From Thermoplasmata archaeon (lineage in GTDB: Archaea; Thermoplasmatota; Thermoplasmata; Lutacidiplasmatales; UBA184), in contig JAGWLG010000053.1 in the NCBI GenBank assembly GCA_028864975.1, positions 1 through 12,075 on the forward strand: a stretch of DNA of 12,075 nt, given 5' to 3'. Numbering within the stretch: the first letter of the stretch is position 1; each line of letters starts with the position of its first letter. A program made the translations under genes and the position numbers. Shown here one piece after another: positions 1,170 through 11,126 of the stretch. The notes beneath the pieces were generated by a model. The model ran no database searches. It had not been told where the DNA came from and was given only the letters and a program-made list of their open reading frames with translations.

Positions 1170-1613
1170 CTAGAAAGCACGGCTCACGGGAGTGGCGACC
1201 TTGACCGACATCGTCTCCTTTTCGGCGGAGCTCTTCTCCCCGATGGCCTCGCGTGCCAGGTCAGGGTGGTGCTCAAGCACGCCCTCCCACTCAGGGTAAG
1301 CTTCCAAGTGGGCCATCTTGGGTCGAGCGTCTCTTCGAGAGAAGAGCACGGCGTGGACCGCGAAGTGGGGGGTGCCTTCGAGACGGTACAATGCCCTGAC
1401 CACGTACATCGAGGGCTGAGAGCGGATCCTCCAGAACGTCCGAGTGCCCTCGGAACGGCTCTCCGCGAGCTTCTGACCCTGATAGACCAGCTCGTGGAAC
1501 GCGGTCCCGTCGGAAGCGAACGGACCCACCGCCAGCTTGAGCTCGCCGATGGTGGGGGAGCCCGGGGTCACTCGAGGGCCGCGGTGAAGGGGCGAGTGGA
1601 CTGCCGGCGACAT
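1170..1613 (-). CDS. Hypothetical protein, 147 aa (start moved to MSPAVH at 1613)
   Basis: The track ORF 1170..1793 overlaps the phoU 3' end and an AT-rich regulatory patch. ATG at 1613 gives a non-overlapping, globular-looking sequence (GELKLAVGPF...WRIRSQPSMYVVRALYRLEG...FAVHAVLF). No family recognised. Confidence 0.6.
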   Translation of the reverse strand: MSPAVHSPLHRGPRVTPGSPTIGELKLAVGPFASDGTAFHELVYQGQKLAESRSEGTRTFWRIRSQPSMYVVRALYRLEGTPHFAVHAVLFSRRDARPKMAHLEAYPEWEGVLEHHPDLAREAIGEKSSAEKETMSVKVATPVSRAF

Positions 1614-1662
1614 GCGTCTAACCGACCGACCGCGAGGGCGGCCTTCAAGGCTCTGAGTTGAC

Positions 1663-1682
1663 ACTATATAGTAGAATATAGT
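1663..1682. promoter_or_regulatory. 20-bp operator-like motif, copy A
   Basis: ACTATATAGTAGAATATAGT (ACTAT-N10-ATAGT). 14/20 positions are invariant across this copy and those at 7846-7865 and 8059-8078. 50 bp from the ATG at 1613. Confidence 0.65.
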
Positions 1683-1701
1683 GGAACTGCTGTAACCAAG
1701 T

Positions 1702-2415
1702 TTACGAGGTATCCTGCTCCCGCAGGGCCTTCGTCGGGAGGATACCACGTCCCGGCCCTTCCCCCGTGACCATGTACACGACCCGGTGCCCAATGTTCAC
1801 TGCGTGGTCCGCGATCCGCTCCAGGTGACGGTTGACGAGGACGAGGTGGGCCCCGACCTCCGGATCGAGCGTGCGGTCCTTCATCGCTTGCACGAGCTCC
1901 TTGAAGACCTTGTCGTGGAGGTCGTCCACGGAGTCGTCGAACTTCGAGATGTCTTTGACCGACTCGGCGTCGCGGGTCGTGAAGGCTCGGATCGCGGTGT
2001 CCAGCATGTGGATCGTGAGGTCACCCATCCGGATCAGGTCCGCCAGTTGAGGGTGATCCCCCATCTCCAGCTTTCGCAGCCCCTCTTCGGCCTCGGTGAT
2101 ATCGCGAGCGTACCGACCGACCCGGTCAAGGTCGGTGGTGATCCCCAAGCAGGTTGTGATGGTCCGCAGGTCCTTCGCGACCGGGGCGTGGAGGGCGATC
2201 AGGTCGACGCAGGTCTTCTCGACCGCCAGCTGGAGTCCGTAGATCTCCTTGTCCAGCGTCGCAACCTCCTCGGCCTCCGCGGCCTCCTTGCGATGAAGGT
2301 CATCCATCGCCTTTCGGATGGCAAGCTCCGCAAGGTCGGCGAGCGTCCGGACATCCTCGTTCAACCTGTCCAGTCCTTGTGCGAGTGCCTTTCGTTGGAC
2401 CCCCGTGCTCTTCAT
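1702..2415 (-). CDS. phoU: Phosphate signalling complex protein PhoU
   Basis: Two PhoU repeats ([25 protein letters not shown]; [28 protein letters not shown]). ATGA overlap with pstB; GGGGAGGT RBS at 2427-2420. Confidence 0.95.
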
Positions 2416-3368
2416 CCGAACCTCCCCGTGATGTAGTTCTCCGTCAACTTCTCCCGTGGCTGTTCGAAGATACGCTTGGTCGAGTCGAACTCGATCAGAC
2501 GACCCTGGTACATGAACGCCGTGAGATCCGCGACACGCGCAGCCTGCTGCATGTTGTGCGTAACGATGACGACGGTGTAGTCGTTCTTGAGCTCGAAGAT
2601 CAGGTCCTCGACCCGTTGGGTCCCGACCGGGTCCAGGCTGGACGTGGGTTCGTCCATCAGGAGCACCCGAGGGCTGACGGCCAGGGCCCTGGCGATGCAG
2701 AGACGCTGCTGTTGACCCCCCGACAGGGTCAGAGCCGGTAGGTCGAGCGACCCCTTCACCTCGTCCCAGAGACCGGTCCGGTGGAGGGCGGAGACCACCG
2801 TCTTTTCGATGACCTCCTCGGACTCGCCATCCAGGCGCAGGCCGAAAGCCACGTTCTCGTAGACCGAGGTGGGGAATACCGTCGGGCGCTGGAAGACCAT
2901 GCCGATCCTACGCCGTACCAGGACGGGGTTCACCTGAGCGTCATAGATGTCGCGCCCCTGGTAGAGGACCTTACCCTTGACCCGAAGGGCGTGCAGTTCC
3001 ACCATCCGGTTCATCGAGCGCAGAAGGGTCGTCTTCCCGCACCCCGAGGGCCCGATGATGGCGGTGACCTTGCCTTCAGGGATGTCCAGGCTCACGTCAC
3101 TGATGAGTGGCTTGGCCTTCGCGAGGACGGAAAGTCCCTGGACCGAGAGAATCCCCCCCGCGCTCCCTGGTCGCGCGACCGACGAGACCGGCGGGGCCGA
3201 CTCCGAGGTCCCGACCGGGAGCGTGGTGCCACAGAAGGAGCAGCGGAAGGGCCCGGAGGGGAAGCCGGGCGGTACAGACGTCCCACACTTTGGGCAGAGA
3301 AGGACCGAGACCTCCTTCGTTGGAGCGGCCGAGGCGACATGCACCGGCGCTCGCCGATCCGGGCTCAT
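2412..3368 (-). CDS. pstB: Phosphate ABC transporter ATPase PstB with an N-terminal C4 zinc-ribbon extension
   Basis: Walker [28 protein letters not shown], signature [15 protein letters not shown], Walker [23 protein letters not shown] and terminal YITGRFG. ATGA overlap with pstA. Confidence 0.97.
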
Positions 3369-4264
3369 TCGTAGATCCCCGCGAGGCGCTGCCGGTACCG
3401 ATCAGAGAGTACCTGGACCACGATGTTGATTACGAGCACGATGACGATGAGGAGGAAGGCGGCCTGGAACGCCAACGTCAAGAAGGTCCCGTACGACCTC
3501 GGGAAGTCGTAGAATGCCCAAATCCCTCCGGTCAGGAAGGCCGTAGGCTGCATGAGGTTCTGGACCGGTGTCGAACTCCAGCCCGCGGTGTAGACCAGCG
3601 GAGCTGCCTCTCCGAGCCCCAACGCCATGGCGAAGAAGATCCCCGTGAGGATCGTCGGAAAGGCGATCGGGAACGCGACGCGACGCAAGTACTGGATCCG
3701 ATTGGAACCCAACGCGAGGGAAGCTTCGCGTTGGCTCGGGGGGACGTTCGAGAGGGCGATGTCGGTGGTACGGAAGATGTACGGCAGCATGAAAATGCCG
3801 AGGATGATCCCTCCAGCGAGGGTCGTGAACCCCCAGTGGGTATAGAGGACGAGGGCGTAGTAGCCGAAGTATCCCAGGACGATCGCCGGAACGCCCGCGA
3901 GCACGTTGCCCGCCAACCGCGCGAGCCTTCGGACGGGGGGCGGGGCGAACTCCGCGGTGTAGAACCCGGCGGAGATGCCTAGTCCTGCTGCGATCGCCGT
4001 TCCGAGCGAGATCAACACCAGCGTCCCCACGATCATGGCGTAGAGGCCGCCGCTCTCCCCCACCTGATTCTCTGTCAGGACCGACCAGGACATGGTGGGG
4101 AGAGCATAGGACGAGACCCACCCGACGAGGTCGAAAAGGGGGAAGAGCACGGCGACAAAGGCGAGAAGCAGGACCCACCCAATGACCCGATCGAAGAGGA
4201 TCCTGCGCCGCAGACGTCCTGACGTTGGAACCAGGTCGCTCCCGAAGCTCGCTGGAGTCTTCAT
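3365..4264 (-). CDS. pstA: Phosphate ABC transporter permease PstA
   Basis: [32 protein letters not shown] (EAA loop), [13 protein letters not shown] overlap with pstC; GGAGGTG RBS at 4275-4269. Confidence 0.93.
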
Positions 4265-5283
4265 CCCCCACCTCCGAGAGTTGTCGCGGTCGCAAGCTCG
4301 ACCCGGGTGAAGCGCTGGGCGACCAGATTGACCACGACCGCTATACCGAGCAGAACGAGGGAGAATTCCACCAAGAGGATGAAGAGGTCCGGATAGAGCA
4401 GTGCACTGTCCAGCTGGGAGAAGATGAACGAGGCCACAGTCGTGCTCGACGCGTACAGGCTCGGAGGGAGTGCAATGGAGGTCCCACCGATGACCATCGC
4501 GACGGCGACGCTTTCCCCCAGCGCCCGACCAAAGCCTAGCAGGACGGCGCTCCAGAGGCCGTTGCGGGCGACACGCATGCGGACCCGGCGCACGACTTCC
4601 CAGCGGGTCGCCCCGAGAGCGAGCCCGGCCTCGACGAGCTCTCGGGGGACGCTGCGCAAGGACTCACGCATCAGGGCGGTCGTCAGCGGGATGATCATGA
4701 TCGTGAGGATGAATACCGCGAGGAGCGTCCCCCATGGACCAATCGCAGAGTCCGGTCCCCCGAAGCCCGGAAGCCATCCCAACACGTCCTTCAAGGAGGG
4801 CTCGAGGGCCATTCCGAAGTACGGCGCGAGGACCACGAAGCCCCAGATGCCGTAGATCACGCTCGGGATCCCGGCGAGGAGATTGGTCACCATGGACAGC
4901 AAGCGGCCGGGAAGGGGAGGAAGATAGACCACCGAGGAAATGGCGAGGGCGAGGCTCAGCAGGGTAGCCAGGACCAGCGAGAGGCCGGCCGTGAGGAACG
5001 TCCCCACCAGGAAGACCCCGATCCCCCAGCTCGATGCCTCAGGCTCTCCTGGCACGAAGCGGTACTGGAACCCCCAGAACGTCCAGCCGAAGTCCTTGAG
5101 CCCACTCGCGATGACCAGTACCGCGATTACGGCCCCAAGCACCACGAGGGGGATCATCGCGACGGGACTTCCCAGCCATGACGCTATGGCAGAGGAGGGC
5201 TCGCGATCTTGTTTCGAAGAAGATGGTGGGGGCGAGGAGTTCCCCGCCCCCTCGGGAAAGGGTTGATCGATCGGCGCGCTCAA
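4261..5283 (-). CDS. pstC: Phosphate ABC transporter permease PstC (TTG start)
   Basis: LLAGIPSVIYGIWG, IMIIP..LRSVPRELVEAGLALGATRWE, LGFGRALGESVAVAMVIG. GGAGGT at 5300-5295. Exact start uncertain. Confidence 0.93.
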   Translation of the reverse strand: MSAPIDQPFPEGAGNSSPPPSSSKQDREPSSAIASWLGSPVAMIPLVVLGAVIAVLVIASGLKDFGWTFWGFQYRFVPGEPEASSWGIGVFLVGTFLTAGLSLVLATLLSLALAISSVVYLPPLPGRLLSMVTNLLAGIPSVIYGIWGFVVLAPYFGMALEPSLKDVLGWLPGFGGPDSAIGPWGTLLAVFILTIMIIPLTTALMRESLRSVPRELVEAGLALGATRWEVVRRVRMRVARNGLWSAVLLGFGRALGESVAVAMVIGGTSIALPPSLYASSTTVASFIFSQLDSALLYPDLFILLVEFSLVLLGIAVVVNLVAQRFTRVELATATTLGGGG

Positions 5284-5310
5284 GCCTGGTACTGACCTCC
5301 GCTCATCCTA

Positions 5311-6555
5311 TCAGTTGCTGATCGGGACCGCCTCCAGAGCCTGCGTGTCGTACCCTATGACGGCCGCGGTCAGGGGCAGGAACGAGACCTTGGACGCGTA
5401 CGCCCCACCATAGGCCAACGCCCACTCGAGGAAGGTCACGACGTCCTTCATGTGGGACTGGCTCGCTGGCGAGGAAGATATTAGCAGATACTCGAGGTTC
5501 GTGTCCGGGTAGGGGGACGGATAGGCCGAACTGGCGAGGGTACCCCCTGCGCCGAGGACGAGGTTCGTCGCTCCGGGAACCCCTCCCAGGATGAGACTGA
5601 TGGCGACGCTGGGAGGCTGCAGGTTCTGCAGGCCGAGATTGGCGTCCTGGCTGACCGTGTAGGCAGAAGGCAGGATGTAGTTCTGCTGGCCGGCCCCGCC
5701 CGAGCCAACCACCCCGTTCACGTTCGCGTTCTGATCGCCGAGGGCGGCGTAGGCCAGACCGGCCGTCGCGTTGATCTGCGTGAGGTAGCTGATGCCGATG
5801 TACGCCACCCCATACTGTGTGTTCCCCAGGAGGGTGACCATCCCGGAGTTCCCCGTGGCGGACGGCCCCACCGGCCAGGTAATCGTCGTGCCGTAGTTCT
5901 GGCCCCACCCCTTCCAGGAGAGGAAGCACAGCGAGCTGAACATGAACGTGTCTCCGCTGCCATCCGCCCGATGAATCGGCACGATCGCGTTCGACGGGAG
6001 CGTGACGCCAGGGTTGGCGGCCTGGATGAGCGGGTCGTTCCAGTGGGTGATTGCGCCCTGGTAGATCATCGCCAGAACCGACCCATTGAGGTTCAGGTGG
6101 GACGAGATGCCCGGGAGATTGTAAACGACCAACTGGGACGAGATAGCGATCGGGAAGTTGACCAGATTGTGCGAGGTCGCTGTGCTCGGGATCAGGTAGG
6201 CGTCCGTGCCGCCCATGTCGACCGTCCCGGCCTCGGCAGAGCTGATGCCGGTCCCGCTTCCCGTGCTCGCGGGTGAGAGCGCGATGTTAGGGTATACGGC
6301 AGTAAACGCTGGCGATAGGACCTGCAGGTACGGATAGATCAGCGAAGATCCGGTCTCAGAGATTGTAGTTGTCTTGGCCCCACCCGTTGAGTTGGGCATG
6401 GCGTACTTGGTGATGGCATACCCCGCCCCTATGCCCACGATCAGGAGCAGGACCCCCAGCCCGAGGGCTGCGCCCTTGGACATCGTGGAGCTCTTTCTCC
6501 GGACCGTTCCCCCGGAGAGGTCATCGTTCGGTCGGGTGGCTTGGCTGCTGGTCAT
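5311..6555 (-). CDS. pstS: Phosphate-binding protein PstS with N-terminal membrane anchor
   Basis: Hydrophobic segment GAALGLGVLLLIVGIGAGYAIT, then ETGSSLIYP, STGSGTGI, IYQGAITHWNDP, HRADGSGDT. AAGGAGG RBS at 6571-6565. Confidence 0.95.
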   Translation of the reverse strand: MTSSQATRPNDDLSGGTVRRKSSTMSKGAALGLGVLLLIVGIGAGYAITKYAMPNSTGGAKTTTISETGSSLIYPYLQVLSPAFTAVYPNIALSPASTGSGTGISSAEAGTVDMGGTDAYLIPSTATSHNLVNFPIAISSQLVVYNLPGISSHLNLNGSVLAMIYQGAITHWNDPLIQAANPGVTLPSNAIVPIHRADGSGDTFMFSSLCFLSWKGWGQNYGTTITWPVGPSATGNSGMVTLLGNTQYGVAYIGISYLTQINATAGLAYAALGDQNANVNGVVGSGGAGQQNYILPSAYTVSQDANLGLQNLQPPSVAISLILGGVPGATNLVLGAGGTLASSAYPSPYPDTNLEYLLISSSPASQSHMKDVVTFLEWALAYGGAYASKVSFLPLTAAVIGYDTQALEAVPISN

Positions 6556-6580
6556 GCGTTCTTTCCTCCTTGGTTTGGGA

Positions 6581-7792
6581 TCATGGTATGCCCTGGGATC
6601 CTAGGTGGCCGCCTTTCTGGGCCCGTCCAGACGTGGCAAAGGGAGGCGATCGTTGGAGAGCAGAAGGTCGTGGGACATCCGTACCCCTTCCGCCCGGGAC
6701 GTGCACCCATTCGAGGGCAGCCCGATCGAGGCAGAGTTCGGCGATGTCCGCAACGTAGGCTGCCGAGCGATCGATGGAATCCAGGACCTGTGCGATCCAC
6801 GCCGCGGTGAGAGGTGGGATCTGCGACGGGGCCTTCCGCGAGAGAAGATTCTGGAGCAGGGCCATGTGGCTTGCGTGAAGCGATCCTGCGGTGTCCGCGA
6901 TCTCGTTCGAGGCTTGCGCGTCGGGCCGGCTGATCAAGGGGATGGCCCGTTCTAGAAGCTCCAACACCTGTCCATAGAACTCGACGACCGAGGGAAGGCG
7001 AGGGGGATGGGAGCCTGTTCGAGGAAGGCTGGCAGAGGCCCGTCCGATTCGGACCGCGTGGTCGCCAATCCGCTCGAGGGCACGAGACGTCGCGAGAAGA
7101 TGCAGAGCGGACGATGCACCATTCGGGAGGATGGTCTCCGCTGGCTCGCGCAGGAATTGGGCGGCGAGCGTTCGATGGAGGCGCCACTCCAGCCGGTCGA
7201 TCTCGTCGTCCTGACCCTCCCAGTACGAGTCGTCCTCCGTCGTAGGAGCTTGCGTAAGGCACTCTCTCGCACGCGACTGAAGCTCGAGCACCCCCCGAGC
7301 CATTCGTACGACGACGGCGACCGGGTCCGATGGGCCGTCTCCCGAGATGTCGCGGAGCGAGATGGCCGAGGATCCCTCCGAGACCACCTCCATTCGTCCG
7401 CTTCGTCGAGCGAACTCACGGACCGTTCTCGTGGCCTCCTTGGACAACCCGCTTGGGAAGGTCAGGACCAGGTCGGTGGTGCCTGTGAGATATGCTGCAA
7501 CCAGACATCGAAAGAGATGCTCGAGCGGCTCCGACCCACCCACGTGCAGGGCGGCCTCCCAGCCTTTCCCACTCGCTCGCACGTCCTCTAGGAGCAGTCG
7601 GCCAGGCCCGGCGTCGTGTACTCGGAGGCTGCCCCCCTGTTCGAGTCCGTTGCTACGGATCCACACGCGGGGAATCGAAACCACAACTTCGCCCTTTCCC
7701 GAGCGACGCAGATGCCTTACGACCTCCCGGCCCCCTCCTTCGATTCCCGCTCGGGGCTCTGAGGGCACCTCGACCATCATCTCGCTCCACAT
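6581..7792 (-). CDS. Archaeal phosphate-uptake regulator: N-terminal AbrB/SpoVT DNA-binding domain plus two PhoU-like domains (COG0704-type)
   Basis: RHLRRSGKGEVVVSIPRVWIRSNGLEQG (AbrB-like), CLVAAYLTG, QDDEIDRLEW, ALERIGDHAVRIG, IDRSAAYVADIAE. The start may be 7780 (GGAG at 7788-7785). Confidence 0.88.
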   Translation of the reverse strand: MWSEMMVEVPSEPRAGIEGGGREVVRHLRRSGKGEVVVSIPRVWIRSNGLEQGGSLRVHDAGPGRLLLEDVRASGKGWEAALHVGGSEPLEHLFRCLVAAYLTGTTDLVLTFPSGLSKEATRTVREFARRSGRMEVVSEGSSAISLRDISGDGPSDPVAVVVRMARGVLELQSRARECLTQAPTTEDDSYWEGQDDEIDRLEWRLHRTLAAQFLREPAETILPNGASSALHLLATSRALERIGDHAVRIGRASASLPRTGSHPPRLPSVVEFYGQVLELLERAIPLISRPDAQASNEIADTAGSLHASHMALLQNLLSRKAPSQIPPLTAAWIAQVLDSIDRSAAYVADIAELCLDRAALEWVHVPGGRGTDVPRPSALQRSPPFATSGRAQKGGHLGSQGIP

Positions 7793-7822
7793 GGCGCGGT
7801 CGAGTGGGCGAGCTTCCCATTG

Positions 7823-7831
7823 AAATATATA
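7823..7831 (-). promoter_or_regulatory. TATA box of the regulator-pst operon
   Basis: TATATATTT on the minus strand, 31-39 nt upstream of ATG 7792. Confidence 0.6.
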
Positions 7832-7845
7832 GAATAAGACAGTAG

Positions 7846-7865
7846 ACTATAGTCCACCACATAGA
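7846..7865. promoter_or_regulatory. 20-bp operator-like motif, copy B
   Basis: The minus strand reads TCTATGTGGTGGACTATAGT; 14 bp upstream of the TATA box. Confidence 0.7.
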
Positions 7866-8058
7866 TGCTTAGGTATGCGAGACCGACCGGGAACCAGCTC
7901 GAGAGGGTAGGACATCGATACGAAAGGACTCGACCCCCCTCGTCCTTTCAACCGAAGCCCACCACGGTGTCCCCGGGCCAATCGGGCATCCTCGGCCACA
8001 CACGGGAGATCGGGCCCTCACTTCTCGACGTCGGGGCGGGGAGTGAACCAAATGTATG

Positions 8059-8078
8059 ACTATGTAGTTCACTATAGT
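8059..8078. promoter_or_regulatory. 20-bp operator-like motif, copy C
   Basis: ACTATGTAGTTCACTATAGT; 15 bp upstream of a weak TATA-like TTATCTT (8094-8100) and 45 bp from ATG 8123. Confidence 0.7.
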
Positions 8079-8122
8079 ATCAGCAGATACCTGTTATCTT
8101 CCGCGGACCAACTCCACCGCCG

Positions 8123-10234
8123 ATGGCGGACGAACCGGCTCGTGAAGTGGTCTCCATCCCGACGATGCGGACCGCGGCGCGAGAGCAGCGGAAGATCCTC
8201 GCTGCCCTGGATTCGAGCAGGACCAAGTCCTTCCATCTCAAGACCATCGTCATCGCGGGAATGGGGTTCTACTCCGATGCGTACGACCTCTTCGTCATCT
8301 CGATGGTCCTCCCGATCCTGGCGTTCCTACCTGGAACCGGCGCGACCTCGAAGTTCGAAGTGTCGGCCCTGGCGGCCGCCGCGCTCTTCGGGGCCGTGGC
8401 CGGACAGGTGTTCTTCGGATTCCTCGCGGACAAGTTCGGCCGAAAGAGGATCTATTCCGTGACGCTCTCCGTCATGGTCGTTGGCGCGATTGGGAGCGCG
8501 CTTTCGGGCCCGTTCATGGGCATGAACCTCGTCATGGTTCTCGTGCTCTGGCGATTCCTACTCGGCTTCGGGGTAGGAGGGGATTATCCGCTGTCGGCCA
8601 CCATCATGAGCGAGTACAGCAACGTTCGCAATCGAGGACGCCTGGTGGCGAGCGTCTTTGCCATGCAAGGTTTCGGGCTCTTGACCGGGGCCTGCGTAGC
8701 GCTCGTAACCATCGTGGCCTTCCCAAACAACTTGGATCTGGTCTGGCGAAGTGTCCTGGCGTTCGGTGCGGTTCCCGCGCTCGCCACCATCTACTTCAGG
8801 ACCAAGATGCCGGAGACGCCCCGGTTCCAGCTCGCAGTTAGTCACGACACTAAGTCCGCAGCACGCACCGTCTCAGCGCTCACCGGGACGTCGGCTACCG
8901 CGCAGGTTTCTGGGACACGCTCTTCGACGAACATTCGGGTCCCACTTCGGACCTTCTTCGTCAACTATGGTCCGGTTCTCTTCGGAACAGCGGCGTGCTG
9001 GTTCCTCCTGGACATCGCATTCTACTTCTCGAACATCTTCAATCCGACGGTCCTGACCCACATCGGTTTCGTGACGAAGGGACTGCCAACCCACCAGGTC
9101 GTCCTCAACCTCGCCGAGGGGAACATCCTGATCGCGGTGTTCGCGACGGTCCCTGGATACTGGGCTGCGGTGGCCCTCATCGACCGGTGGGGCCGACGTG
9201 GATTGCAGATCCTGGGGTTCGGGGTGATGGCGATCTCCTTCACCTTCCTCGCCGTCTTCTACAACGAGCTTCTTGCGACATCGCTCCTGTTCTTCCTCGT
9301 GGTCTACGCTACCACGTTCTTCTTCGCGAACTTCGGGCCCAACACGACCACTTTCGTGATCCCTAGCGAGGTCTATCCGACACAGTTCCGAGGGACCGGG
9401 CACGGGATCTCCGCGGCGTCCGGGAAGATGGGCGCCGCGATCGCCACGTTCTTCCTCCCGCTCTTCGTGTTGAGCGATGGGCTCCCGGCAACCCTGATGG
9501 TCCTCGCCGGCGTCTCCTTCCTAGGCTTCCTGATCTCCTTGGCGGTGACTCCAGAGACCGCCGGCCGGGCGCTCGAGGACGTCTCGAGAGAGGACGAGCT
9601 CCACCTCATGGTGGAACGGTTCTCGGGCCACCTCGAGGGGCTCGTTGACGCGGTGAAGCTCGGGGCCATCGAGCTGAAGATGCTCCTGGACAACCCGCCC
9701 ACGGAACAGGCCGTGCGGATCACCCGAATTCGAGCCATCGAGCATAGCGCCGACGAGGCGGTCCACCAAGTCTACGTTGACCTCAACAACAAGGTGATGA
9801 AGAGCCAGGTCCGCTCGGACGTCGGCGCCCTGGCGTCGCACATCGACGACATCATGGACGGGATCGAGAGCGTCTCCGCCCGAATGCAGACCTACCATTT
9901 CACCGAGAGCAACGCCGAGCTCCGACGGTTCGCGGACATCGTGGTCCAGTGCGTTGACCAGGTGGGGGTTGGGATCCGGGCGCTCGACCGGCTCTTGCAG
10001 GGCGAGAACCAAGAGCTCCAGAGGGCCATCATCGAGGTCAACCGCTTGGAGAACGAGGCGGACGACCTGCTGCGGGTCCTGCTAGAACGCTTGTTCAACG
10101 ACTCGAAGGACCCTGTCGAGATCCTGAAGCTCAAAGACCTCTACGAGCGCCTTGAGGTCATCACTGACCGATGCGAGGACGTGACCGATGTGTTCCAGGA
10201 CCTGATGGTCCGTTACGTCCAGACCTCGACCTGA
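8123..10234 (+). CDS. MFS phosphate:H+ symporter (PHS family, PHO84/PHT1-like, aa ~1-490) fused to a C-terminal DUF47/PhoU-like domain (aa ~495-703)
   Basis: IVIAGMGFYSDAYDLF, GVGGDYPLSATIMSEY, FAMQGFG, MPETPRF, WFLLDIAFY, NFGPNTTTFVIPSEVYPTQFRGTGHGISAASGK, PETAGRALED. Then AIEHSADEAVH, HIDDIMDGIE, LENEADDL, LKDLYERLEVITDRCEDV. One continuous frame. Confidence 0.93.
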   Translation: MADEPAREVVSIPTMRTAAREQRKILAALDSSRTKSFHLKTIVIAGMGFYSDAYDLFVISMVLPILAFLPGTGATSKFEVSALAAAALFGAVAGQVFFGFLADKFGRKRIYSVTLSVMVVGAIGSALSGPFMGMNLVMVLVLWRFLLGFGVGGDYPLSATIMSEYSNVRNRGRLVASVFAMQGFGLLTGACVALVTIVAFPNNLDLVWRSVLAFGAVPALATIYFRTKMPETPRFQLAVSHDTKSAARTVSALTGTSATAQVSGTRSSTNIRVPLRTFFVNYGPVLFGTAACWFLLDIAFYFSNIFNPTVLTHIGFVTKGLPTHQVVLNLAEGNILIAVFATVPGYWAAVALIDRWGRRGLQILGFGVMAISFTFLAVFYNELLATSLLFFLVVYATTFFFANFGPNTTTFVIPSEVYPTQFRGTGHGISAASGKMGAAIATFFLPLFVLSDGLPATLMVLAGVSFLGFLISLAVTPETAGRALEDVSREDELHLMVERFSGHLEGLVDAVKLGAIELKMLLDNPPTEQAVRITRIRAIEHSADEAVHQVYVDLNNKVMKSQVRSDVGALASHIDDIMDGIESVSARMQTYHFTESNAELRRFADIVVQCVDQVGVGIRALDRLLQGENQELQRAIIEVNRLENEADDLLRVLLERLFNDSKDPVEILKLKDLYERLEVITDRCEDVTDVFQDLMVRYVQTST

Positions 10235-10345: not shown

Positions 10346-10429
10346 TTCGAACCGCGGACCTTTCGGTTAACAGCCGATCGCTCTACCGCTGAGCTACGGC
10401 GGCACCGGGTGGCCCGACCCCGGGGGCGG

Positions 10430-10849: not shown

Positions 10850-11052
10850 GCTACACCTTGTCCGAACGAGGGTTTCGCCGGTATTTAATGGGTTGTTCAT
10901 CCGGTGCTGACCCAAAAGTGGTGCATGCCAGGGGTTCCCACCACCGGGTGGACGCGCTCAGCCTCCCACATTCGTCGGTGGGATCTCGAATCCCTCCTCC
11001 CCATCGGCAGAGAGAGCGGACGGGCTCGCGCCACACGGGAATCGGAGGTATG

Positions 11053-11126
11053 CGGGCCCGCCGGGATTCGAACCCGGGTCTGAGGCTCCGGAGGCCCCTG
11101 TGATATCCAAGCTATACTACGGGCCC
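11053..11126 (-). tRNA. tRNA-Arg(CCG)
   Basis: GGGCCCG TA GTAT AGCTTGGAT ATCAC A GGGGC CT-CCG-GA GCCTC AGAC CCGGG TTCGAAT CCCGG CGGGCCC G. A20 Arg determinant present; one A12.C23 mismatch; full CCA not encoded. Confidence 0.9.

Follow-up and report, generated by a model that had tools for sequence, protein, structure and literature searches.

What switches the phosphate-uptake genes of archaea on and off? To our knowledge, archaea are without PhoR and PhoB, and what is understood of the switching of their phosphate uptake is an outline, drawn from haloarchaea alone. The question is raised here by a 12,075-nt stretch of DNA (hereafter the window) from a Thermoplasmata MAG (G000; source mine drainage and soil; 3.6 Mb, 67% GC, assembly 89.6% complete), in which three similar 20-bp sites lie at a pst locus. 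We consider it probable that these boxes serve as operators for a small phosphate regulon confined to this locus, and that they are bound by the adjacent regulator, which most likely activates at low phosphate. Three congeners (G001, G002 and G003) were compared alongside G000, four in all; because G001 and G002 are near-identical, the genus supplies no more than about three lineages that count as independent. No sequence inspection included the unpublished genome G044, on which no claim depends.

Three sites at a phosphate-uptake locus

A sequence-only reading of the window had described three copies of a 20-bp motif with 14 of 20 positions invariant; on re-check, the sequences and coordinates proved exact and the invariance among A, B and C was borne out. 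The sites are the following.

1663-1682, plus strand: site A, ACTATATAGTAGAATATAGT, present at the corresponding position in G001, G002 and G003
7846-7865, minus strand: site B, TCTATGTGGTGGACTATAGT, conserved in congeners
8059-8078, plus strand: site C, ACTATGTAGTTCACTATAGT, with 3 mismatches in G001 and G002, not kept in G003

They precede three transcription units, namely a genus-specific gene for a 147-aa protein, the regulator-pstSCAB-phoU operon and a divergent phosphate:H+ symporter gene.

1170..1613, minus strand: 147-aa protein without a family assignment, found in close relatives only
1702-2415, minus strand: phoU, same operon as the regulator
2412-3368, minus strand: pstB, same operon as the regulator
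3365-4264, minus strand: pstA, same operon as the regulator
4261-5283, minus strand: pstC, same operon as the regulator
5311-6555, minus strand: pstS, within the 1702..6555 stretch, read as co-transcribed with the regulator
6581..7792, minus strand: regulator, 403 aa, AbrB-like at the N-terminus, with an alpha/beta domain in the middle and a PhoU six-helix bundle at the C-terminus
8123..10234, plus strand: MFS phosphate:H+ symporter fused to PhoU_div/DUF47 (TIGR00887, 445 bits; PF01865)

The regulator gene and pstS are 25 nt apart, and a GGAGG ribosome-binding site precedes pstS. Site A lies 20 nt past the phoU stop codon and 49 nt from the ATG of the 147-aa gene (1613, minus strand), site B is 53 nt from the regulator ATG (7792, minus strand) and site C 44 nt from that of the symporter (8123). 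As written, site A is on the strand opposite its gene, and its orientation to the gene differs from that of B and C; because the site is nearly palindromic, A fits the other orientation with three mismatches. Between B and C, a GC-rich spacer of 193 bp matches no Rfam family and is poorly conserved in congeners, and a 64-aa ORF at 7865-8059 was considered and found unsupported.

The 147-aa gene, which keeps its synteny with site A throughout the congeners, is presumed to be the third regulon member. Its product has only four homologues; it fits no family in Pfam or NCBIfam and no fold in the PDB, and its Atlas scores stay below 0.9. The sole Pit gene of the genome (on contig C20) has no box upstream, and neither a second pstS nor PPK1 was found in the assembly.

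The degenerate pattern did not occur in 200 shuffles of the window, and a search of the whole 3.6-Mb genome with up to three mismatches returned only A, B and C, extending to the genome the earlier statement that the window holds no other copy. The shuffles and this genome-wide search together rule out a chance repeat. The pattern CTAT-N10-ATAG likewise has three occurrences in the 3.6-Mb genome, which are sites A, B and C; control spacings (N7-N9 and N11-N13) gave one to four matches each across the whole genome, none of them at the three sites. An independent matrix, built solely from the G001-G003 sites and then run on G000, placed A (31.6 bits), C (28.4 bits) and B (21.2 bits) at ranks 1-3, the next match scoring 17.1; the weaker matches (C84/C36, C48, C92 and C46) have no adjoining phosphate genes as far as inspected.

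Palindrome and promoter geometry

The locus is syntenic in the congeners, where all three site positions are conserved except that of site C in G003. The motif had been read as an outer palindrome combined with a 10-bp direct repeat. The arms of the site are invariant and its spacer varies freely. This pattern favours an operator with palindromic symmetry over both a direct repeat and a generic TATA, and with it the first half of that description over the second. From its letters, the site reads as an 18-bp palindrome, CTAT-N10-ATAG, and as a putative operator. In G001 the exact palindrome is found only at A and B; G002 has it at these two sites and in one GC-rich chance match besides.

Three TATA-like elements accompany the sites, all conserved in congeners, that of C partly.

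7825..7835, minus strand: strong TATA of the operon promoter, TTCTATATATT, centre ~37 nt before the ATG, invariant in the four congeners and conserved family-wide
8091..8099, plus strand: CTGTTATCT, the symporter promoter's weak TATA-like element, centre ~28 nt before the ATG, partly conserved in congeners
1643..1650, minus strand: conserved CCTTGAAG block, ~33 nt upstream of the 147-aa gene's ATG

For every copy a TATA-like box had been claimed, lying 14-15 bp downstream of it; such an element is strong at B (TCTATATAT), weak at C (TGTTATC) and doubtful at A (CTTGAAG). The gap between site and element is 12-15 nt at A, B and C, and is fixed for each promoter across congeners. The accompanying suggestion that the promoters are weak fails at B, with its strong TATA. 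The CCTTGAAG block, mostly invariant in the four congeners with one variable base (G-CTTGA-G), is a possible weak TATA substitute; a sigma-70 and terminator scan around site A gave nothing relevant. At B the TATA (CTATATAT) is itself similar to the box and could also be occupied.

Generic TATA boxes in G000 resemble TTTATATA, with their centres 24-31 nt ahead of the ATG in a mostly leaderless genome, a geometry with which the position of the symporter element agrees. The motif is confined to the pst locus, and this consensus, the genome-wide uniqueness of the motif and the matrix ranking rule out a generic TATA variant. The boxes could also be alternative core promoter elements, that is, additional TATA boxes giving longer leadered transcripts rather than a regulator site. 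They are AT-rich and TATA-like, and CTATATAG serves as TATA at -27 of an AbrB-PhoU paralogue gene on contig C115. Core elements would, however, be neither restricted to phosphate genes nor kept as a palindrome with a free spacer, the generic TATA is TTTATATA-like in this mostly leaderless genome, and at B an invariant TATA stands apart from the box, 20 bp downstream of it, which makes this explanation very improbable.

The operator reading was followed into other genera of the family, where CTATAG-type boxes are likewise present at the regulator and symporter promoters; the motif, for which absence from relatives had been named as damaging, is thus found at the same promoters in congeners and in other genera. 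At site B, the proximal box CTATAG begins 20 bp ahead of the TATA box, and the proximal box with this spacing recurs in five genera for the regulator and in a sixth for the symporter. Among 29 box-TATA pairs from six genera, 13 have CTATA[GT] exactly 20 bp before TATA, and the CTATAG boxes of the family show 20-bp or 9-bp phasing. Tandem CTATAG boxes stand upstream of the orthologous symporter gene in other genera. Within 41 family genomes the pattern CTATAGNNNCTATA matched in 5, every match lying at the symporter promoter, and its reversed control gave six scattered matches; because the pattern was derived from promoters in which it was then found, only the lack of off-target matches is informative in this search.

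The candidate binder and the direction of control

The neighbouring protein had been called an AbrB-PhoU fusion, and profiles, fold comparison, a paralogue and a dimer model point to a PhoU protein with a probable AbrB-like N-terminus. The PhoU part is a feature shared with the archaeal SpoVT/AbrB-PhoU fusions known as 'phosphate uptake regulator PhoU'. The C-terminal domain of the protein is a PhoU domain (PF01895, 51.5 bits; PDB PhoU profile, 4e-15; Foldseek match to PhoU 4q25, TM 0.81) with conserved metal-site motifs (D195/D196-x2-D199 and E240-x3-D244). At the N-terminus, PF04014 scores 18.4 bits, under the cut-off of 24.7, and a 31%-identical paralogue scores 26.2 bits, above it; residues 29-70 are modelled as beta strands. 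A homodimer model of residues 22-152 is symmetric and scores 0.53 against 0.00 for the best control, with runs agreeing in at least 70% of contacts, partner pLDDT of at least 67 and an interface at residues 23-73. Of the calibration proteins, 20 of 30 with a structure solved as a pair and 1 of 23 solved as a single chain reach the mark for this score, and the pass may reflect likeness to solved structures, because solved AbrB/MazE dimers exist. Locally, the statement that archaea lack PhoB holds in that no OmpR/PhoB-type domain (PF00486, Trans_reg_C) was detected in the 89.6%-complete assembly.

We infer the binder, the signal and the direction of control: the boxes would be the docking site of this phosphate-sensing regulator. 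The protein (6581-7792, SpoVT/AbrB-like-PhoU) would bind the arms CTAT(A)...(T)ATAG either as one dimer with two-fold symmetry or as a pair of dimers. Each site lies directly upstream of BRE/TATA, its centre ~26-27 bp from the TATA centre, which would place it at about -53 from the transcription start. Three promoters would be controlled, those of its own operon (regulator-pstSCAB-phoU), of the divergent symporter and of the 147-aa gene. The PhoU domain, whose metal/phosphate-site motifs are intact, would sense phosphate status; at low phosphate the regulator, on its sites, would most likely aid TBP/TFB loading, which would matter most at the two promoters with a poor TATA.

Another protein might bind the boxes, either one of the three further AbrB-PhoU paralogues carried by G000 or an unrelated regulator, the adjacent regulator being merely a target. 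Such paralogues exist and adjacency does not prove binding, but in five genera it is the promoter of the pst-linked orthologue itself that carries the boxes; moreover, two of the paralogue promoters are without a box, and the third has a single box at the TATA position (the box-like CTATATAG at -27 of the C115 gene). We regard a different binder as improbable.

In bacteria, PhoU regulates the Pho response negatively, so that a repressing or dual role is conceivable here. The same protein would then occupy the same boxes when phosphate is ample and, oligomerising toward the TATA, block TBP/TFB, starvation freeing the promoter. The box-like TATA of promoter B and of the C115 paralogue would suit such a role, as would the 20-bp phasing, which would permit cooperative binding on one helix face; promoter B, because its TATA is strong, is also not obviously in need of an activator. 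Against repression, no box-like sequence covers the TATA position at A and C, the sites lie upstream of BRE at all three promoters, and a need for activation would fit A and C, where the TATA is weak. In addition, haloarchaeal pho-boxes are reported to be necessary for induction (PMC6560208). Repression appears rather unlikely, and from the sequence we favour activation, because the sites are upstream of BRE/TATA and the TATA is weak at two promoters. Binding and transcription assays can be designed directly, because the site is unique in the genome, the candidate binder is adjacent and the TATA geometry is conserved.

Comparison with known systems

The archaeal activators Ptr2 (Methanocaldococcus jannaschii; Lrp) and GvpE (haloarchaea; bZIP-like) have sites directly upstream of BRE/TATA. 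The present sites share this placement, keep a constant spacing to the TATA and are paired with a weak one at A and C, as is found for archaeal upstream activating sites. They differ in the protein family, Lrp or bZIP-like there and AbrB-PhoU here, and activation is here a deduction.

The Pho box of Escherichia coli (PhoB-PhoR) consists of two 7-bp CTGTCAT direct repeats with an 11-bp period and replaces the -35 element. Like it, the boxes described here mark phosphate-uptake promoters, cover the regulator's own operon and stand upstream of the core promoter. The bacterial box is a direct repeat, whereas the present site is a palindrome of another sequence in which no CTGTCAT repeat is found; it is served by a response regulator there and by a candidate one-component AbrB-PhoU protein here, where the machinery is archaeal TBP/TFB and no PhoB-type regulator was found.

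On a wider and tentative reading, which we hold to be possible rather than likely, CTATAG-type box pairs at a fixed 20-bp phase before TATA would be an ancestral, pan-archaeal Pho box, on which AbrB-PhoU proteins would act as one-component, phosphate-responsive activators recruiting TBP/TFB in place of PhoR/PhoB, with lineage-specific members such as the 147-aa protein. This cross-phylum reading of the CTATAG / TCTATATAGA box was tested within one Thermoplasmata family and at a few class-level loci. Beside phn operons, among plasmid-borne AbrB-PhoU paralogues, the Haloferax alexandrinus locus is without boxes and that of Natrinema has TCTATAGA at -47. If the same box holds across phyla, the phosphate regulons of uncultured archaea would be predictable from sequence alone.

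The closest known system is that of Halobacterium salinarum, in which, according to PMC6560208 (citing Furtwangler 2010), pho-boxes in the pst1 and pst2 promoters are attributed to PhoU regulators and are needed for up-regulation on phosphate starvation. The sequence-only reading knew of no description of its motif; the class is known in concept from these boxes (PMC6560208), and in the literature searched we found no description of a CTATAG-type site for AbrB-PhoU. The underlying idea is therefore not new, and what the present locus adds is that archaeal phosphate control becomes testable and that the candidate regulon is extended to an MFS symporter-PhoU_div fusion and the 147-aa protein. 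Compared by description only, both are archaeal cis-elements at phosphate ABC-transporter operons in lineages without PhoB/PhoR (PMC6560208), and the placement in promoters of phosphate-uptake operons is found here and at the same genes in relatives. The present site differs in belonging to Thermoplasmata, in standing also before the MFS symporter gene and the 147-aa gene, and in being known from its sequence.

The three palindromic sites and their genomic rarity

The phosphate locus of this uncultured Thermoplasmata archaeon, whose source environments are mine-drainage and soil metagenomes, comprises the following features.

1613-1170, minus strand: 147-aa gene, downstream of phoU
1663-1682, plus strand: site A, 20 nt past the stop codon of phoU and 49 nt ahead of the 147-aa gene
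6555 down to 1702, minus strand: pstS, pstC, pstA, pstB and phoU, in that order
6581-7792, minus strand: regulator of 403 aa with a PhoU domain
7846-7865, minus strand: site B, at the probable promoter of the six-gene regulator operon
8059-8078, plus strand: site C, 44 nt ahead of the symporter gene
8123-10234, plus strand: MFS phosphate:H+ symporter with a PhoU_div/DUF47 domain (TIGR00887, 445 bits), divergent from the regulator

The 25-nt gap between the regulator gene and pstS contains no AT-rich element and a GGAGG ribosome-binding site precedes pstS, so that the promoter at site B probably drives all six genes. The PhoU_div/DUF47 fusion places a PhoU-like module at the C-terminus of a transporter; most genomes of the family retain it, and some genera have unfused paralogues of about 500 aa. 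The 147-aa protein, invariably encoded after phoU and behind site A, has a strongly conserved core (residues 25-119), only four homologues among 5.8 billion proteins and a beta-rich predicted model (pLDDT 74) with no PDB fold match. A short tRNA-like Rfam match at 10350-10403 on the minus strand (34.2 bits, E 4e-4; not called by ARAGORN), about 650 nt from tRNA-Arg (11052-11126), may be a tRNA fragment.

The three 20-mers are found precisely where the sequence-only reading had placed them, with 14 of 20 positions identical, and its statement that the window holds no further copy extends to the rest of the genome, in which the degenerate pattern is absent with up to three mismatches (assembly of 3.6 Mb, 67% GC, 89.6% complete; the window is one whole contig). 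None of 200 dinucleotide-preserving shuffles of the window contained this pattern. The symmetric skeleton CTAT-N10-ATAG has three genomic matches, namely A, B and C; control spacings N7-N9 and N11-N13 gave one to four matches each, none at these sites. The word ACTATAGT occurs three times in the genome, twice in the window. The boxes are very probably the operator of some regulator, specific to the phosphate locus.

That they might be a generic TATA variant was also considered. AT-only 8-mers upstream of high-GC3 ORFs (TTTATATA, ATTATATA and similar) peak 24-31 nt before the start codon, a peak that we read as the ordinary archaeal TATA of leaderless transcripts. The boxes differ in containing a G (TATAGT), in their more upstream position and in their rarity, and a generic promoter element was rejected as their identity on these grounds.

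Promoter geometry and conservation

At all three promoters the centre of the site lies 26-27 bp from that of the TATA-like element (element positions below count from the start codon).

Promoter A: site centre 1672.5, element centre 1646.5; only a conserved CTTGAAG at about -33
Promoter B: site centre 7855.5, TATA centre 7829; strong, invariant TATA, TCTATATAT
Promoter C: site centre 8068.5, element centre 8095.5; weak TGTTATC at -28

The weak promoters of the earlier description do not include B, and the TATA-like element at A is doubtful. Given this spacing and gap lengths that are constant in congeners, the sites would be placed directly ahead of BRE, at about -43 to -62 from the predicted transcription start. 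They share this position with the sites of archaeal activators such as Ptr2 and GvpE, which act in this region.

The locus is syntenic as a whole in three congeners, with 60-71% identity of the regulator. Site A is conserved in all three (TCTATATAGCC[C/A]ACTATAGA; TCTAAATAGGACTCTATAGA). G001 and G002 retain site B (TCTATGTTGTAGACTATAGT) and, with three mismatches, site C; G003 keeps mainly the proximal half of B (CTATAGTCTA), and C is not recognisable there. With G001 and G002 almost identical, about three independent lineages are available in the genus. Across the whole genome, the exact palindrome is confined to A and B in G001; in G002 it is found at A, B and one GC-rich chance match. A symmetrised weight matrix built from the relatives' sites only ranked A (31.6 bits), C (28.4) and B (21.2) first in the source genome, the next match scoring 17.1. 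In the congener alignments, 55-60% of motif positions are invariant vs about 30% in the surrounding sequence, and invariance concentrates in the arms (positions 2-6, 12-15 and 17-19 in one pattern, 1-7 and 15-18 in the other), leaving the centre free. Such a pattern is what a two-fold symmetric operator would leave, and not the 10-bp direct repeat that had also been proposed.

Beyond the genus, a composite element (xTAT, about 12 nt, CTATA[G/T]TCTA, N10, (C/G)TA(T/C)ATAT) precedes the pst-linked regulator orthologue in five genera and the symporter gene in a sixth (L050). Of 29 box-TATA pairs, 13 have a distance of exactly 20 bp from box start to TATA start, which forms a single sharp peak. 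[quoted passage not shown] Among 41 genomes of the family (about 80 Mb), 5 contain the word CTATAGNNNCTATA, always at the symporter promoter; it was taken from those promoters, so only the absence of off-target matches counts as evidence (its reversed control gave six scattered matches). The core word (CTATAG, TCTATATAGA) and both the 20-bp and 9-bp phasings are seen within this Thermoplasmata family.

The candidate regulator

The C-terminal half of the regulator is a PhoU bundle (PF01895, 51.5 bits; PDB profile match to 1t72, 4e-15; Foldseek TM-score of 0.81 between its model, mean pLDDT 74, and Pseudomonas aeruginosa PhoU 4q25); the acidic motifs of its metal site do not vary across 17 orthologues. 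Its N-terminus scores 18.4 bits against SpoVT/AbrB (PF04014), below the 24.7 cut-off; a paralogue encoded on contig C115, with 31% identity, exceeds that value (26.2 bits), and its PhoU match is also significant. Modelled as a homodimer, residues 22-152 gave a score of 0.53, the best control 0.00. Of the calibration proteins, 20 of the 30 solved as pairs reached the mark, as did 1 of the 23 solved as single chains; since solved AbrB/MazE dimers exist, the score would indicate likeness to them and not proof. Runs agreed in at least 70% of contacts, with partner pLDDT of at least 67, and the modelled interface is symmetric (strands 23-73). A DNA-binding module with this predicted two-fold symmetry suits a palindromic site. 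The 89.6% complete assembly yielded no domain of the OmpR/PhoB type. Residues 78-148 (window 7313-7559) are modelled as an alpha/beta domain of their own, which lies after the AbrB-like strands and before the PhoU bundle and gave weak IF3-C/Alba-like matches in Foldseek.

It is likely that this adjacent AbrB-PhoU protein binds the boxes, as the sequence-only reading had suggested; its dimer would then occupy the palindromic operator at its own operon promoter and so autoregulate. We lean towards activation. In its favour are the position upstream of BRE, the weak TATA elements of promoters A and C, and the reported dependence of up-regulation on haloarchaeal pho-boxes (PMC6560208). Repression or a dual role is somewhat less probable and is kept in play by three points: bacterial PhoU acts negatively, promoter B has a strong TATA, and there are box-like TATA sequences.

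Extent of the regulon and related systems

The upstream region of the sole Pit gene is GC-rich and without a box, and two further AbrB-PhoU paralogues in the genome also lack one; neither a second pstS nor PPK1 is present in the assembly. The C115 paralogue (L078; gene start 90489) carries a single palindrome, CTATATAG, at 90457-90466, exactly at the TATA position (-27); this 8-mer occurs three times in the genome, there, in site A and at a metal-ATPase/CGNR regulator promoter. Two contigs end in identical stretches of roughly 170 nt (C84:14534-14706 and C36:5225-5397), a repeat or assembly duplicate that carries a weak matrix match, AGAATATTGTTCACTACAGA. On haloarchaeal plasmids (L081, L082), AbrB-PhoU paralogues adjoin operons for phosphonate (phn) transport and C-P lyase, and a second 'PhoU family transcriptional regulator' accompanies them.

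The literature searched contained no account of a site of the CTATAG type for AbrB-PhoU proteins. Sites A, B and C, which are not of the bacterial PhoB box type, are well supported by their sequence as a candidate Thermoplasmata instance of the archaeal Pho box and lend themselves readily to experimental testing. The closest published system, likened by description and not by sequence, is that of the Halobacterium salinarum pst1 and pst2 promoters, whose pho-box is attributed to PhoU regulators (PMC6560208).
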